A DNA stretch of 48,414 bases from NCBI GenBank assembly GCA_905234465.1, contig CAJOHU010000002.1:1-48414 (forward strand), written 5' to 3'. The translations under genes and the position numbers were made by a program. Positions 1-45,028 of the stretch are shown here, piece after piece (the first letter of the stretch is position 1; each line of letters opens with the position of its first letter). A model generated the notes under the pieces. It saw only the letters and a program-made list of their open reading frames with translations. It was not told the DNA's origin and searched no databases. Source of the stretch: an uncultured Alphaproteobacteria bacterium (GTDB lineage: Bacteria; Pseudomonadota; Alphaproteobacteria; Rs-D84).

Positions 1-109
1 AATTATCCGCAAATACCGCAGACGCCGCAAAAATTGCGGATATTACGATAAATATGCGTTTGATACTCATCTGATACTTCCCTTTCCCTTAATTTCCAAC
101 ACTAAAAGT

Positions 110-135
110 ATAACAAAAAGGTACCTTTTTGTTAT
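110..135. repeat. 26-nt perfect palindrome ATAACAAAAAGGTACCTTTTTGTTAT (copy 1 of a 20-nt palindromic core)
   Basis: Read directly. The core ACAAAAAGGTACCTTTTTGT (113-132) recurs at 246-265. Confidence 0.85.
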
Positions 136-204: not shown

Positions 205-238
205 AAAAAATTAAAAAAATTAAAAAAAGTTAAAAAAA
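205..238. other. four phased A6-7 tracts (starts 205, 213, 222, 232)
   Basis: Sequence is aaaaaattaaaaaaattaaaaaaagttaaaaaaa. The 8-10 bp spacing is typical of intrinsically curved DNA. Confidence 0.7.
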
Positions 239-270
239 GGGGTGGACAAAAAGGTACCTTTTTGTTCCAC
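232..270 (-). terminator. intrinsic terminator: long GGTACC-centred hairpin + CCC + T7 (minus strand)
   Basis: The minus strand reads GTGGAACAAAAAGGTACCTTTTTGTCCAC CCC TTTTTTT. The stem is 13-14 bp with one bulge. Confidence 0.6.
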
Positions 271-323
271 TCAACGGCGCAGAAATTGCGCCTTATAAGT
301 GATTATTCCAGAGAGCCGGTTCT

Positions 324-514
324 CCTCCGGTAATCACCCACAAAATTTTTCAAATTTTGCGGGGCCCGATAGAGGAGTACGGTGCGGAACACCGGGAGGT
401 GGTTAGAGCATTCGTTATTATTTTGTATTCTCTGACCACCCCGGCGGGTGCTACCCGCCACCCCTCCGGTAATCACCCACAAAATTTTCCAAATTTTGCG
501 GGACCCGATAGAGG
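324..514. repeat. two 51-52-nt direct repeats (324-375 and 463-514), period 139 bp
   Basis: CTCCGGTAATCACCCACAAAATTTT(T/C)CAAATTTTGCGGG(G/A)CCCGATAGAGG, 49/51 identical. Each contains the hairpin CCCACAAAATTT/AAATTTTGCGGG. Confidence 0.9.
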
Positions 515-643
515 GGAACTTACACCGCCCGGTCTGCGGTGTGACGATTTTCTGGAACCCCCCTACCCCGGTGCCGTTCGGCACCACCCCTTCCCACAGG
601 TAGGGGGACTTAACACTAACCACTATTATAGGTAAAGGGAATC

Positions 644-664
644 AAAAAGGTGGCATTTGCCACC
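644..664 (-). terminator. intrinsic terminator of the 700..1590 gene
   Basis: The minus strand reads GGTGGCA-AA-TGCCACC followed by TTTTTGA. It lies 36 nt after the stop codon. Confidence 0.7.
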
Positions 665-699: not shown

Positions 700-1590
700 T
701 TAATATTCTATCTCTTGCGCTAATTCTTTCGCGTATGCCGAACCACGCCCCAACGGTCCGATAGCCAAAACTCTGGCTTTTAAAGTTCCTAACCTTAATT
801 CCGCTGTTTTTCTGGCATTGGTTTCTTTTGCCAAATTTTTCTTAAGTTCTTCTATCTCTGCTTGCAGCTCTTCAATTGTTGGCTCTGCTTTTTTTGATTT
901 GTTCAACTTTCGTGCCATTTCACGCATAATTTCTTCGTAATTATCCGGGTATTTCAGACTCTGTACTTCGTGTTCTAAAGAAACCCGTATCCCTTCTCTA
1001 TCAGCTTTGGTTGAAACCTTGGTACCATAATGTTTATCATTCCATTGGGTTTCTTCGGCCTGTTTAAATTTAGTTATTTTTTCTATGATTGGTGTATACG
1101 GTTCATTTGCTGCATTTGGGACACTCCAATATTGAACCAGTATTTGTGGATCCACCTTATCAATTAATTTGTGATAGATAGTAAAGAATGTCTTTGGGTC
1201 ATCACATTCATCGGTAATAATCCATGGACCAGATTCTTTTGGGTCCGCATTTATCATATGTTCTTTTTTCACAGATTTTAAGACTTTTTTATCTTCAATT
1301 TCATTTAATATATCTTCAAATTTTTTATCGCCACTCATATATTTTAAAAGCCGATATAAATCGCGTAAAAAGTGTTTTCCCAAAACAGATGTGGAATTTT
1401 CCTTGGCGGAGCGTATCTCGCTGTCCAATCTGTTTAAAGATTTGTCGTGCCAAATCATAGATGAAATGTCTTGATTAACTTTTTTCCCTTCTAATGTTTG
1501 TATAAACACCTTTTTAACATCCACGTTCGTCTTTCCAGACAACAATAAACTGGCTGCTTCTTTTACCGATAGATACTTCATTTGTGGCAT
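700..1590 (-). CDS. hypothetical protein, possible N-terminal HTH and C-terminal coiled coil
   Basis: 296-aa ORF with an ATG start and AAGGAAAG RBS, 25 nt after the nlpD-like stop. The N-terminus KYLSVKEAASLL resembles an excisionase/MerR-type helix. The C-terminus EELQAEIEELKKNLAKE is heptad-like. No family recognised. Confidence 0.7.
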   Translation of the reverse strand: MPQMKYLSVKEAASLLLSGKTNVDVKKVFIQTLEGKKVNQDISSMIWHDKSLNRLDSEIRSAKENSTSVLGKHFLRDLYRLLKYMSGDKKFEDILNEIEDKKVLKSVKKEHMINADPKESGPWIITDECDDPKTFFTIYHKLIDKVDPQILVQYWSVPNAANEPYTPIIEKITKFKQAEETQWNDKHYGTKVSTKADREGIRVSLEHEVQSLKYPDNYEEIMREMARKLNKSKKAEPTIEELQAEIEELKKNLAKETNARKTAELRLGTLKARVLAIGPLGRGSAYAKELAQEIEY

Positions 1591-3204: not shown

Positions 3205-3834
3205 TTATTTATAAGGACAAACAAATACCGCGCTTGGTATATCATCAGTTTTTAATGAATCTTTTTTGTTGTATGTTATGAAGTCACCCTGTAGAACCGA
3301 CGCGAAATCAGCAATGTCGTTCATTTTTTCATCAAAAGAAGCATCATCTACAGAAACATAAAGCAGAGAAGCACTTCTGCTTCCGTGATGATATTGCAAA
3401 TCTTGGGGATTATAACCATACGCAGTAACAGAATACCTAAGATTCATCAAACAGTCTGATTGTGAATCCGTTGAGTCTTGAAGGAACGCAATATATCCAC
3501 CATCGTTTGTTTTTATTCCAACGACATTACTAGAAACTTCTATTACCTCTGATATGGCAGTTTTCCTAACTTTATTAAGATACATATCAATAATCATATT
3601 GCGTTTTTCGGTATCGGACGGCAAAATAATTTCATTAAAACAATACGCATCACGAATAGTATCATCGTTAGATTCGCACGGATTAATTGGGACACATGCC
3701 AGAGTCTTTTCCACCCAAACATATTTGTCTGGATATTTTTCACATAAACTTCTTCTGTCTGCCGCACTTGGCACCGCAGACGCCGCATTTACCACCGCCA
3801 AACCGGCGATTATTGATAACAAAGTTTTTTTCAT
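3205..3834 (-). CDS. secreted Cys-containing protein, paralogue B2 (unknown function)
   Basis: Start taken at MKKTLLSIIAGLAVVNAASA (ATG 3834, RBS AAAGGAGAAAAA), not the ORF-track start 3915. A signal peptide is present. The N-terminal ~60 aa are shared with the 3878..4570 product. Confidence 0.8.
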   Translation of the reverse strand: MKKTLLSIIAGLAVVNAASAVPSAADRRSLCEKYPDKYVWVEKTLACVPINPCESNDDTIRDAYCFNEIILPSDTEKRNMIIDMYLNKVRKTAISEVIEVSSNVVGIKTNDGGYIAFLQDSTDSQSDCLMNLRYSVTAYGYNPQDLQYHHGSRSASLLYVSVDDASFDEKMNDIADFASVLQGDFITYNKKDSLKTDDIPSAVFVCPYK

Positions 3835-3861
3835 TTTTTCTCCTTTTTTTATTTTGTTTCT
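3689..3861. repeat. ~173-bp segment duplicated at 4425-4597 (5' UTR + N-terminal coding part of the paralogues)
   Basis: Long identical runs by eye, e.g. ccacccaaacatatttgtctggatatttttcacataaa and gataacaaagtttttttcattttttctcctttttttattttgtttct. Confidence 0.85.
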
Positions 3862-3877
3862 GTTTATCAAGATTTTG

Positions 3878-4570
3878 CTAATCGCCCCACCAAAACTCTT
3901 CATCAACGGCGGCATTAGCCCCCTCTATCCAACACACTTTGTGACCTTCGTAATCCGGATCATACGTATACTTCATTGTTTTGCCATTTAAATCAGATAC
4001 AAAATGTGCCAAATCTGCGCACTCTGCCTTACCTCCATCAAGCATGAGGCATGGCATTTTCTTTGGTTCTTCAAAAACATCCTCAATACCCCGCATAAAA
4101 TTACCACCATATACTTTACAAGCGGCACCATTAGCAGTATAAATAGCGTCATAACCATAAGGAATTTCTACATATGTACCATCATAATTTACCAACAACA
4201 CCGGAGCAGACTCGCAAAAGAACTTGCTCAGTTGCCACGATTCTACCCAAACACAATCATTATGACTATCTTCTATTTTTGTGATATTACGTGTATTTAA
4301 TGCCTTTTTCAACAATTTATCACGTATCGCCACATCTTTCAAAGCTGCCTCTTCCACATAGAGAAATATGTGATCACAATATGCACTACGAATATCCCAA
4401 TCATTAGACGCACAAGGATGTATCGGGACACATGCCTGGGTTCTTTCCACCCAAACATATTTGTCTGGATATTTTTCACATAAATTTTTTCTTTCTGCCA
4501 CACTTGGTACCGCAAATGCGGTCCCCATTACCATAAATCCCGCAATTATCGATAACAAAGTTTTTTTCAT
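3878..4570 (-). CDS. secreted Cys-containing protein, paralogue B1 (unknown function)
   Basis: 230 aa. Signal peptide MKKTLLSIIAGFMVMGTAFA. The conserved block LCEKYPDKYVWVERTQACVPIHPCASND is shared with the next gene. Identical RBS region. Confidence 0.8.
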   Translation of the reverse strand: MKKTLLSIIAGFMVMGTAFAVPSVAERKNLCEKYPDKYVWVERTQACVPIHPCASNDWDIRSAYCDHIFLYVEEAALKDVAIRDKLLKKALNTRNITKIEDSHNDCVWVESWQLSKFFCESAPVLLVNYDGTYVEIPYGYDAIYTANGAACKVYGGNFMRGIEDVFEEPKKMPCLMLDGGKAECADLAHFVSDLNGKTMKYTYDPDYEGHKVCWIEGANAAVDEEFWWGD

Positions 4571-4597
4571 TTTTTCTCCTTTTTTTATTTTGTTTCT
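4425..4597. repeat. second copy of the ~173-bp duplicated 5' segment
   Basis: See 3689-3861. Confidence 0.85.
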
Positions 4598-5403: not shown

Positions 5404-5431
5404 CACACTAACACTAACCACTATCCACTAT
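5404..5431 (-). repeat. stop-codon-abutting TAGTGG/TTAGTG repeat module (hairpin-less form)
   Basis: The minus strand reads TAGTGGATAGTGGTTAGTGTTAGTGTG, with TAG being the tatC stop. The flanks are identical to the module after thrS (15649-15699). Confidence 0.8.
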
Positions 5432-15649: not shown

Positions 15650-15700
15650 ACACTAACCCCTGCCCCACGAAGCCTTGGCGAAGTGGGGACTATCCACTAC
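15650..15700. repeat. 51-nt hairpin-containing repeat, copy A (abuts the thrS stop codon)
   Basis: ACACTAACCCCTGCCCCACGAAGCCTTGGCGAAGTGGGGACTATCCACTAC. It is an inverted copy of 17630-17680. Confidence 0.85.
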
Positions 15701-17430: not shown

Positions 17431-17579
17431 AATAAAATCCTCTAATTATTTTTGTTATTTTTTTGACTGATTGATTATATAAACGCGCCATTAAAAACGC
17501 AAATAAAAATTACCGCACCCCAAACGGGGTTGTAGTTGTCACGGTTGCGAAAGATAACAAAATGTTTTCCATACCCACT

Positions 17580-17607
17580 ATTATATTCCCCAAAAAAACA
17601 AAGTCAA
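17580..17607 (-). promoter_or_regulatory. sigma70-type promoter for thrS (TTGACT-16 nt-TATAAT)
   Basis: The minus strand reads TTGACTttgtttttttggggaaTATAAT. This predicts a ~140-nt leader containing the CCCCGTTTGGGG hairpin. Confidence 0.6.
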
Positions 17608-17611
17608 TATA

Positions 17612-17640
17612 TTAGTGTTAGTGGTTAGTGTTAGTGGTAG
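17612..17640 (+). repeat. TTAGTG/TTAGTGG tandem units (4.5 copies)
   Basis: TTAGTG TTAGTGG TTAGTG TTAGTGG TAG. The orientation is opposite to all other copies of the motif in the window. Confidence 0.85.
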
Positions 17641-17680
17641 TTTCCACTTCGCCAAGGCTTCGTGGAACAAGGGTTAGTGT
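17630..17680. repeat. 51-nt hairpin-containing repeat, copy B (inverted relative to copy A)
   Basis: The reverse complement is ACACTAACCCTTGTTCCACGAAGCCTTGGCGAAGTGGAAACTACCACTAAC. Stem CC/GG in copy A becomes TT/AA here, a compensatory change. Confidence 0.85.
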
Positions 17681-17771
17681 TCCAGAGAGCCGTCACACCG
17701 TATTATTAAACCCCGCCCTTGCGGCGGGGTCGCAGAGTGCAAGCGTAACGTGGCACGATGCGGGGGCGGGT
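17681..17771. other. GC-rich structured spacer sharing a 22-nt module with the 300-640 block
   Basis: GTTCCAGAGAGCCGTCACACCG matches 19/22 to the reverse complement of 537-558. CCCCGCC-CTTGC-GGCGGGG hairpin. The distal GGGGGCGGG can pair with CCCCGCCC. Confidence 0.5.
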
Positions 17772-17796
17772 AAAAAAAACGGTGGCAACCGCCACC
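17772..17796 (-). terminator. intrinsic terminator of the 17816..18430 gene
   Basis: The minus strand reads GGTGGCGGTTGCCACC G TTTTTTTT. Confidence 0.8.
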
Positions 17797-17815
17797 GTTT
17801 ACTAACCACTAACAC

Positions 17816-18430
17816 TTACAAATATGTACCACTTAAAGTATTCACTGTCCACAGCGTACAATCTTCCGCATCGCACCCAGACGGGTTTGATGCATAAGTA
17901 CTGTCACTGCACGCGGCACATGTCATATGTCCATTAAATGCCTGCGTGACCGCAGTATTTACATGATTCGCCAGGGCAAGATTGTTCGCCGTACCATTTT
18001 GACCCGTGGTATATGTACCCGCATATATTGCCTTATGATCTGTGGGGGCGCCACCGTTTGCATACAAAACAACCTGACCGTTGTAAGTACCGTCACCAAT
18101 TTTATCCTGTTTATCGGTCAACTTATCTTTAATCACACCCGTGGTCACCAACTTGGGTGAATTGTCGGCTTCATCGTCAAAATCCTGTGAATCATCTATA
18201 ATCACGCGCGAATTCGGATTTCCACCAGCATTAGGACCATCCGGATATGTGACCGCCGCACCTTCTGTACCACTCATAGCGTTTTGCAAATTGCCCACCG
18301 CGGATGTAACGTAACTGACACTGGTGACCGTCTTATAATCATTCGGATTATTAACCGGATCATCAACCGCGAACGCCCCAGAATTTGCCAAAACCGCCAT
18401 CATTGCGATAAATATATATTTAATTTTCAT
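17816..18430 (-). CDS. secreted protein of unknown function (fibre/adhesin-like motifs, Cys-containing C-terminus)
   Basis: Start at MKIKYIFIAMMAVLANSGAFA (ATG 18430, RBS AAAGGAGAA). An acidic stretch is followed by LVTTGVIKDKLTDKQDKI. C-terminus CAACSDSTYASNPSGCDAEDC. Confidence 0.7.
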   Translation of the reverse strand: MKIKYIFIAMMAVLANSGAFAVDDPVNNPNDYKTVTSVSYVTSAVGNLQNAMSGTEGAAVTYPDGPNAGGNPNSRVIIDDSQDFDDEADNSPKLVTTGVIKDKLTDKQDKIGDGTYNGQVVLYANGGAPTDHKAIYAGTYTTGQNGTANNLALANHVNTAVTQAFNGHMTCAACSDSTYASNPSGCDAEDCTLWTVNTLSGTYL

Positions 18431-18602
18431 GCATATTCTCCTTTCCCAAGTTTCTTGATATATACAGTATAACAAAAACGCATATTTGTGTCCACACCTT
18501 TTTTTGATTTTTTTATTTTTATTATAAACCCACTATTTTCTCTTTACTTTTTGGGCTTTTTTTTCTAATCTGAGCCGTGAAATATTAAAAAGGAGAAAAA
18601 TT

Positions 18603-44991: not shown

Positions 44992-45012
44992 AACCGCCCG
45001 TTTGGGCGGTTT
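44991..45012. terminator. bidirectional hairpin between ruvC and yebC
   Basis: AAACCGCCC-GTTT-GGGCGGTTT, followed by CACTAACCACTAATTACTAA, which abuts the yebC stop. Confidence 0.75.
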
Positions 45013-45028
45013 CACTAACCACTAATTA

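Follow-up and report, generated by a model that had tools for sequence, protein, structure and literature searches.

We analysed the DNA of an uncultured alphaproteobacterium over a stretch of 48,414 nucleotides (nt; contig CAJOHU010000002.1, hereafter the window), and in particular a GC-rich, hairpin-dense block at positions 300-640, for which an original prediction made from the sequence alone had proposed a novel structured RNA. The block is real and strongly folding, and it looks like an array of hairpin modules rather than a self-contained new RNA gene. The reading that we favour, and to which we would give about an even chance, is an array of GC-rich hairpin modules that is specific to the lineage, with each module folding on its own. 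It resembles BOX and repetitive extragenic palindromic (REP) elements and would fold in RNA of gene sense (minus strand). Such an array would occupy the space from the upstream gene's terminator to the outer inverted repeat of an invertible promoter of 133 bp. Its hairpins would most likely pause, terminate or stabilise read-through transcripts arriving from upstream; with this read-through stopped or buffered, the switch orientation alone would decide whether the downstream gene is expressed. When the switch is OFF, as in the window, a strong terminator would be added by the distal repeat and its T-runs. The modules have probably spread as semi-selfish repeats along with the gene cassettes. 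In short, the 630-nt non-coding stretch can be read as a hairpin-module array plus an invertible promoter for a secreted-protein family.

A strongly folding block outside the known RNA families

The GC content is 0.52-0.65 across 301-600, compared to 0.34-0.44 in both flanks. Relative to shuffled sequences, the minimum free energy of 230-700 has a z-score of -9.53 on the plus strand and -7.10 on the minus strand, and none of 100 shuffles was equally stable. The sequence features listed in the original prediction were all found in place, and its stems at 380-394, 398-440, 443-459 and 522-542 as well as the nested stem at 559-607 were all recovered on folding. CCGG-N7-CCGG (316-330) is also present, but is trivial as a stem, because CCGG is self-complementary. 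The two direct repeats had been described as 51-nt units (325-375 and 464-514), and these indeed mismatch at only 2 of 51 positions; we delimit them as 57 nt with 93% identity (324-380 and 463-519). The window contains just these two copies (chance expectation 0), and each repeat (R1, 322-377, and R2, 461-516) folds as a long irregular hairpin.

Conservation is not at the protein level, as already argued in the original prediction, since the two repeats fall in different frames of the open reading frames (ORFs) that cross the block. A protein-coding block was rejected, as the repeats are out of frame with each other and a gene caller reported no gene in the region. ORFs do cover the block on both strands (P0004, P0005, 106-aa and 92-aa ORFs), and they are spurious.

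The claim that the block belongs to no known RNA family also held. Covariance models of Rfam 15 gave no match at the gathering score in the whole window, and only chance matches far below threshold at E ≤ 10 in the region 1-900. In the related arrays described below, there was one spurious match to a microRNA precursor (34.5 bits, compared to a gathering score of 150). ARAGORN found no tRNA or transfer-messenger RNA (tmRNA) gene in the whole window. Several specific candidates were rejected: tmRNA (including the two-piece alphaproteobacterial form), RNase P and 6S RNA for want of any Rfam or ARAGORN signal and of the conserved motifs, and integron attC sites, CRISPR, the repeats of diversity-generating retroelements and a riboswitch leader because their repeats are built differently and block and gene are separated by a further promoter. 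The block shares with Rfam 15 families, tRNA and tmRNA a GC content above that of the genome and many stems, yet matches none of them. On present evidence it lies outside any curated RNA family and is not a new class of structured RNA.

On the minus strand, a 296-aa gene (1590..700) is followed by its terminator (664..649 plus T5), the block, a hairpin with T-runs (270..232), two further hairpins, a promoter-like site (135..107) and a gene start at 70. The features are as follows; L numbers denote other contigs and genomes.

640-664, minus strand: intrinsic terminator of the upstream 296-aa gene, GGTGGCAAATGCCACC followed by T5
610-630, minus strand: TATAAT box (630..625), then the heptamer-like motif AGTGGTTAGTGTTAA (624..610); not conserved
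559-607, minus strand: H6, nested GC-rich hairpin, a variable module; replaced in L006 by H6', none in L007
520-557, minus strand: start module A (TTCCAGA-N5-GTCA, 557..542) with hairpin H5 (544..520)
461-516, minus strand: R2, second copy of the direct repeat; base stem CCCCUC/GAGGGG, conserved minus-strand G.U pair
443-459, no strand: hairpin H4, GGCGGGT-GCT-ACCCGCC; invariant in three copies
395-442, no strand: H3, stem of 11-13 bp, loop AT-rich and about 21 nt long; the one wobble pair favours the plus strand
380-394, minus strand: hairpin H2; minus-strand G.U pair in the window
322-377, minus strand: R1, first copy of the direct repeat; base stem CUCCUC/GAGGAG
305-318, plus strand: A', incomplete copy of the start module in inverted orientation (TTCCAGAGAGCCG); pairs with 545-557
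276-292, no strand: small hairpin GGCGCAGAAATTGCGCC in the spacer; spacer identity 66-69% to L006/L007
243-271, no strand: distal inverted repeat of the invertible promoter (GTGGACAAAAAGGT/ACCTTTTTGTTCCAC)
133-245, no strand: invertible segment with phased A-tracts (205-238), TGGACA (243-248) and two small hairpins
107-135, minus strand: proximal inverted repeat, with a perfect 26-nt palindrome at 110-135
1-70, minus strand: 5' part of the controlled gene, truncated at the contig end; encodes MSIKRIFIVISAIFAASAVFADNSSVT.., with a signal peptide
17613-17815, plus strand: second array, partial and inverted, with heptamer repeats, H6', an A module, X hairpins and a terminator module
15650-15699, minus strand: H6'-type hairpin (CCCCACTTCGCCAAGGCTTCGTGGGG) directly 3' of the thrS stop codon

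Hairpin modules recur in variable arrangements

A search of a protein collection with the translated spurious 106-aa ORF led to two short ENA contigs, L006 and L007. In the alignment of the three contigs, the core 305-558 is nearly unchanged. The genes upstream differ (a 296-aa protein, an OmpA-like C-terminus and a hemolysin-III-like protein), and the downstream switch is common to all three contigs, through the ATG of the MSIKR gene. Identity among the three is 97-99% at 324-523, 66-69% at 269-303 and 75-90% at 84-223. In L006, the distal 39 nt of R1 are absent and the same base stem closes on an ACA loop, hairpin H6' is found instead of H6 (559-607), and the TATAAT reads TAGAAT, without a -35 box. 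Homology in L007 starts only at TCCAGA (~556), hence this contig lacks H6 and the TATAAT region. The core is bordered by TA on both sides in L006 and L007; the window has no TA on the H5 side (GGGGGG/TTCCAGA). For the closing helix, H3 and H4, the three near-identical copies contain no informative variation.

Individual modules are more widespread than the core. The start module, as TTCCAGA-N5-GTCAYNCCGC, occurs in the window at 557..536 and, inverted, at 17680-17701, and the A-H5 module was found in at least seven further contexts, in both orientations. It is inverted in L094, L096, L097, L126 and L127. The copy at 17680-17701 (TTCCAGAGAGCCGTCACACCG) belongs to the second array (17613-17815), which has the opposite orientation to the block and lies between a paralogous secreted-protein gene (17816..18430) and thrS. 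The hairpins labelled X are further GC-rich hairpins of this second array, and its terminator module is of the block's own type. This recurring module can be written GTGGTTAGTA(AA)CGGTGGC-loop-GCCACC-T run; the terminator at 640..664 is one copy of it. Orthologues of the paralog were found in L088-L093, on contigs that end 136-442 nt past the gene. The DNA 3' of these orthologues is a mosaic that opens with a terminator, then TA/TTCCAGA-N5-GTCAYMCCGC-loop-GCGG, so that the start module is present there too, in two copies in L090-L093.

The end of the array that borders the inverted repeat is also reused. In L091, the array ends with a diverged R hairpin and then GTTGAGTGGAACAAAAAG, the same sequence that borders the block in the window. 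In L110, from the JGI metagenomes, the start module heads other hairpins, and the array still closes with CCGG-H2-GUAC-(short R)-GAC at the inverted-repeat sequence; the gene upstream of it is a member of the secreted-protein family, so cassettes stand in tandem. L102 has a short R hairpin only; in a second organism, no array accompanies the same switch. Hairpins of the form GUAC-stem-(G)AAC, homologous to R1 with other tips, are thus known from L091, L102 and L110. A U-rich tract follows the R hairpin clearly in L110, and less so in L102 and L091.

Together, the A-H5, R, H2, H6', X and terminator modules recur in variable order, number and orientation, at the window block, 17613-17815, 15650-15699, L006, L007, L088-L098, L110 and L126-L128. 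BLAST of 230-700 against plasmids and phages found no match. Only local hairpins are shared between loci, and other arrays differ in content at the same position. The six-way junction and the closing helix of a global fold are accordingly not kept, as other hairpins are found between the same start module and the inverted repeat. The apparent closing helix (306-315/548-557), which resembles terminal inverted repeats, results from the pairing of A' with the start module; as the product of a partial inverted copy, it is not a conserved feature. The plain REP-type or transposon-like repeat that had been set against a structured RNA, with dozens of genome-wide copies and no covariation, was found in part: modules do recur, inverted or duplicated, but in a handful of contexts rather than dozens, and with covariation.

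A heptamer-like repeat, (GTTAGTG)n, e.g. AGTGGTTAGTGTTAG, was observed at 610-624, 5408-5422, 17620-17634 and 45009-45023 of the window and at 3590-3650 of L094. The motif has 5 matches in the window versus 0.56 expected, directly after stop codons or beside -10 boxes, and contains stop codons in several frames. Its repeat number varies by strain, with about 7 units in L094 and about 2 in the window.

Compensatory changes and strand preference

The hairpins of the original prediction are real and under selection for pairing, as compensatory changes were found in R, H5 and H2. At position 2 of the R base stem, R1 has U-A, and R2, L091, L110 and L102 have C-G; position 6 is C-G or U-A. The R tip of L091 contains three changed pairs, including U-A to A-U and U-A to C-G. 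The loop of H5 is closed by G-C, A-U or C-G, two more positions covary, and the loop reads GAAG in four of five copies. H2 has a compensatory difference between the window (U-A) and L110 (C-G).

The original prediction had left the strand unsettled, pointing to a G-U wobble in the repeat hairpin on the minus strand. This wobble proved general for the repeat hairpins, which carry G.U pairs on that strand only. Read on the minus strand, R and H2 contain at least nine G.U pairs and no A.C mismatches, i.e., all non-Watson-Crick pairs are G.U, and one such pair is kept in every long R copy. The R hairpin of L091 is a perfect 27-bp helix on the minus strand only (-44.1 versus -34.5 kcal/mol). In the three near-identical copies alone, wobble pairs are split about evenly between the strands; the preference becomes clearer for R and H2 with the diverged copies. 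From these pairs, the hairpins would most likely act in gene-sense (minus) RNA, with evidence that applies to each hairpin and not to a global fold.

An invertible promoter adjoins the array

The 20-mer ACAAAAAGGTACCTTTTTGT is found at 113-132 and 246-265, inside the 26-nt inverted-repeat arms 107-132 and 246-271. The repeats are perfect palindromes around GGTACC, with 133 bp between their centres. At the segment edge, a -35-like TGGACA (243-248, plus strand) faces away from the gene. At the site next to the gene, a good extended -10, TGtTATACT (-10 at 112..107), is combined with a weak -35, ATAACA (135..130). Simulated inversion between the GGT/ACC centres places A-tracts, GGGGTGGACA, 17 nt and TATACT before the gene, in this order, and the inverted promoter differs little from the fixed one in front of the paralog (18431-18545). 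Judged from the sequence, crossover would split the promoter between -35 and -10.

A scan of JGI data with the palindrome found 27 loci, many of them at contig ends. L101 has exactly the predicted ON junction, before an orthologous gene, and the window, L006, L007 and L102 are in the OFF orientation. L110 has a single palindrome site. OFF junctions were also seen in the second organism, which has the same core with another Cys-rich secreted-protein family; in its contig L112, two divergent genes have a single segment between them that is ON for only one of the two, i.e., a toggle. Inverted repeats thus flank a promoter element that is present in both orientations in the sequence data. ON, OFF, deleted and two-gene toggle configurations were seen in different metagenome contigs, and both orientations of one locus within one sample were not seen among the contigs examined. 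A site-specific recombinase was not found in the 48-kb window; it may be encoded elsewhere, as in Bacteroides and Mycoplasma penetrans (PMC2268961).

The TATAAT at 630..625 and the hairpin and T-runs at 270..232 are present in the sequence; the latter had been taken for a closing terminator. By its sequence, this element is instead the outer (distal) inverted repeat of the invertible promoter together with UP-like A-tracts, and it reads as a strong minus-strand terminator in the OFF orientation. The A-tracts would act as UP element when the switch is ON and as terminator U-run when it is OFF.

The controlled gene belongs to a family of secreted proteins with members in the window at 17816-18430 (minus strand) and 1-70 (minus strand), and in L101, L102 and L110. 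The L101 orthologue of the downstream gene (MNIRQIFITIAAVMLTSAVFADTSSVTSKKYVD..) has at least 368 aa, and short family members have about 185-210 aa. The N-terminal part '..TSxxYVxxxV..KQ..' is conserved, the C-terminus contains Cys ('..CxLWxVN.LSGTYx'), and no Pfam domain was found in the family proteins. A search with the paralog returned orthologues of the paralog only and none of the downstream gene. Family genes occur in tandem or in scattered cassettes; one paralog has a fixed promoter, the others have switches. On the favoured reading, the switch governs the gene of a putative phase-variable secreted (adhesin- or fibre-like) protein.

Assemblies of many samples break inside or at most about 140 nt from the inverted repeats or arrays at the window start and in L006, L007, L088-L093, L099, L101, L104, L105, L108 and L116. 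The window contig ends about 135 nt past the centre of the proximal repeat, near k-1 for k=141. Mixed orientations or repeats would produce such a pattern. The 20-nt palindrome itself was also observed, as CACAAAAAGGTACCTTTTTGTG, in L106, L107, L111, L113, L121 and L122, in unrelated context and with repeated GTGTGAAG/CTTCACAC flanks; there it is probably a different element in other organisms.

Alternative explanations

Some observations do not sit easily with a BOX- or REP-like array. Copy numbers are modest: the 48 kb of the window hold two A modules and two R hairpins, the H4-H3 core was found only in the three near-identical contigs, and exact and gapped R-hairpin patterns had no match in 185,579 GTDB species genomes, JGI metagenomes and viral contigs (IMG/VR). 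In the window, the R hairpins have no trailing U-tracts, so that a terminator role is not evident there, and the wobble pairs in H3, the closing helix and the ends of H5 favour the plus strand. In addition, the core at 324-523 is 97-99% identical, compared to 66-90% for adjacent non-coding DNA, and 'junk repeat' alone is insufficient to explain this; such conservation needs strong constraint, very recent spread or gene conversion. The recurrence of contig ends in or beside arrays speaks for the array.

The very strong predicted structure, the core that is far better conserved than its flanks and the minus-strand G.U pairs in R and H2 would all suit an independent minus-strand small RNA of about 360-390 nt, with a promoter near 630 (TATAAT) and an end at the 270..232 hairpin with its U-run (T7). 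This explanation, which we consider unlikely, is close to the discrete RNA gene of about 390 nt, with its own promoter, terminator and global fold, in the original prediction. Neither a conserved promoter nor a terminator of its own was found for it. The promoter is TAGAAT without -35 in L006, is missing with its region in L007 and was not called by a promoter scan; the 'terminator' is the inverted repeat of the switch, and because a terminator exists there only in the OFF orientation, the 3' end of the RNA would depend on the switch. Arrays at the same position also differ in module content and global fold, and H3 and the closing helix prefer the plus strand. The discrete RNA gene is therefore unsupported. 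It is distinctly improbable, by our estimate, that the array is instead the functional RNA or insulator of a new type of phase-variation cassette, in which inversion would toggle reciprocally between a structured non-coding RNA and a surface protein and the switch would set the minus-strand 3' end.

Transposition and DNA-level function were considered as well. A miniature inverted-repeat transposable element (MITE) would extend from TTCCAGAGA... to ...TCTCTGGAA (305-557), with a transposase elsewhere and a TA target duplication. Terminal inverted repeats are indeed present, as 306-315 pairs with 548-557 (TTCCAGAGAG versus TTTTCTGGAA) over 7-10 bp depending on the strand, TA stands on both sides in L006 and L007 and ahead of most A modules, and the near-identical core is found in three upstream contexts. 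The downstream neighbour is the same in all three copies, however, so the copies may be orthologous, and the window copy lacks TA on the H5 side. Moreover, R1 and H2 are homologous to hairpins of L102 and L110 that have no second inverted repeat, which argues that the unit was not inserted as a block. With no transposase in the window and no empty site found, we regard a MITE as quite unlikely. We think it very unlikely that the R tips (CCCGCAAAATTT-N3-AAATTTTGTGGG, 139 bp apart) and the other palindromes serve at the DNA level, as sites of an invertase, an accessory factor or a regulator. The core is nearly invariant in sequence and not in structure alone, the palindromic half-sites CCCGCAAAA/TTTTGTGGG are retained in the diverged copy of L091, and the array directly adjoins the distal inverted repeat; but the compensatory substitutions in the central R palindrome are the pattern of a hairpin rather than an operator, L006 has no R1 tip, and in L102 and the second organism such an array is missing beside the same switch. 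Lastly, a plus-strand RNA might be driven outward in the OFF orientation by the A-tract and TGGACA half, reciprocally to the gene. The fold z-score is better on the plus strand, the A-tracts and TGGACA face the block, H5 is followed by UUUUCU in the manner of a plus-strand terminator, and L112 toggles two divergent genes with one segment. Yet the matching -10 (TCCACT) lacks the key A at position 2 and is equally poor at other loci, R and H2 have A.C mismatches when read on this strand, and other A modules have not kept the U-tract behind H5; we consider a transcript of this kind highly improbable.

Relation to known repeat elements and switches

The REP sequences of enterobacteria and their clusters, the bacterial interspersed mosaic elements (BIMEs), are extragenic imperfect palindromes in mosaic arrangement, found in both orientations after genes and terminators, with proposed roles in the stabilisation of transcript 3' ends and in termination. 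The hairpin-module array is similar in all of these respects, as it consists of palindrome mosaics in both orientations after genes and terminators, and similar roles are proposed. Its hairpins are longer and more heterogeneous, and the copy number is not in the hundreds in available data. The flanking motifs are GUAC/GAAC and GTCA, not GTAG, and regarding a REP/RAYT system, a scan of 30 ORFs of the window revealed no transposase domain. Correia elements and other TA-flanked MITEs have inverted-repeat ends and form long hairpins that are possibly RNase III substrates. Inverted ends and long hairpins are found here as well, with TA flanks in two of three copies. In contrast to these elements, internal parts are homologous to hairpins without inverted-repeat ends, and neither matched filled and empty sites nor a cognate transposase were found.

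The pneumococcal BOX elements are modular repeats of the type boxA-(boxB)n-boxC (Croucher et al., 2011; PMC3049150). Like the block, they lie between genes and are built from modules, the internal ones varying in number and the end ones able to pair, have extensive predicted structure, are confined to a single lineage and form spurious ORFs on both strands in large copies; they are thought to affect co-transcribed genes (PMC3049150). The array shows no sequence relation to BOX, nor to REP clusters or Correia-like elements; compared to BOX, it comes from another phylum and has far fewer copies as seen here. The arrays also go with a single type of gene cassette, where they stand upstream of an invertible promoter.

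Invertible promoters are known for surface-protein families, as in mpl of M. penetrans and the capsule loci of Bacteroides (PMC2268961). As in those systems, the switch next to the array is a short promoter segment between inverted repeats, with one switch per gene, scattered or tandem genes, a reduced genome and no recombinase beside the locus. It differs in its palindromic GGTACC repeats, in a crossover that would split -35 from -10 and in A-tracts that would have a dual role.

The genomes of Candidatus Enterousia, near relatives of the host (see below), are smaller than 1 Mb and about 90% coding (PMC12306168), so a non-coding stretch of 630 nt is costly and probably not idle. The locus provides a first view of surface variation in these uncultured, probably partner-dependent gut bacteria. 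It also calls for caution, as strongly folding GC-rich islands in AT-rich genomes can be repeat mosaics. The palindrome ACAAAAAGGTACCTTTTTGT, TTCCAGA-N5-GTCA and the R hairpin can be used for locating cassettes in other metagenome-assembled genomes (MAGs), and help to account for assembly breaks.

Host and neighbouring genes

In a comparison of threonyl-tRNA synthetase (ThrRS), a Candidatus Enterousia sp. came closest with 85% identity, followed by a related gut MAG of the Alphaproteobacteria with 83%. Judged by these identities, the host is a gut alphaproteobacterium with a reduced genome, near Candidatus Enterousia. The window is core chromosome at the end of an ENA metagenome contig (k141_1622348, 48,545 bp), with genes for PBP2, RecJ, LolA, TatABC, SecDF, ThrRS, RecA and others.

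The 296-aa gene upstream of the block was found in only two relatives (71% and 56% identity). In both, the position of the block is occupied by a tRNA-Lys(CTT) on the opposite strand (L003 7160-7220; L004/L005 4941-5016). The lineage of the window has no tRNA at this position, so the junction has been rearranged. A tRNA-Lys remnant or an attachment site in the block was rejected, as local alignment to the tRNA-Lys(CTT) of L004 gave chance matches only.

In the closest GTDB genomes, L008 and L009, the flanks of thrS have only the thrS leader in common with the window, and the block was not found there. This leader (17431-17600; also in L008, L009, L094 and L096) follows a strong TTGACT-17-TATAAT promoter and contains the hairpin ACAACCCCGTTTGGGGTG. 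It has about 74% identity even in GTDB Enterousia genomes, has no Rfam match and is possibly an autoregulatory leader of ThrRS.

Two adjacent paralogous secreted-protein genes are found at 3205-3915 and 3878-4570 (minus strand). Their products (MKKTLLSIIAG..CEKYPDKYVWVE..) have no Pfam match, and the 5' parts of the pair have 81% DNA identity over 225 nt (3640-3861 versus 4376-4597).

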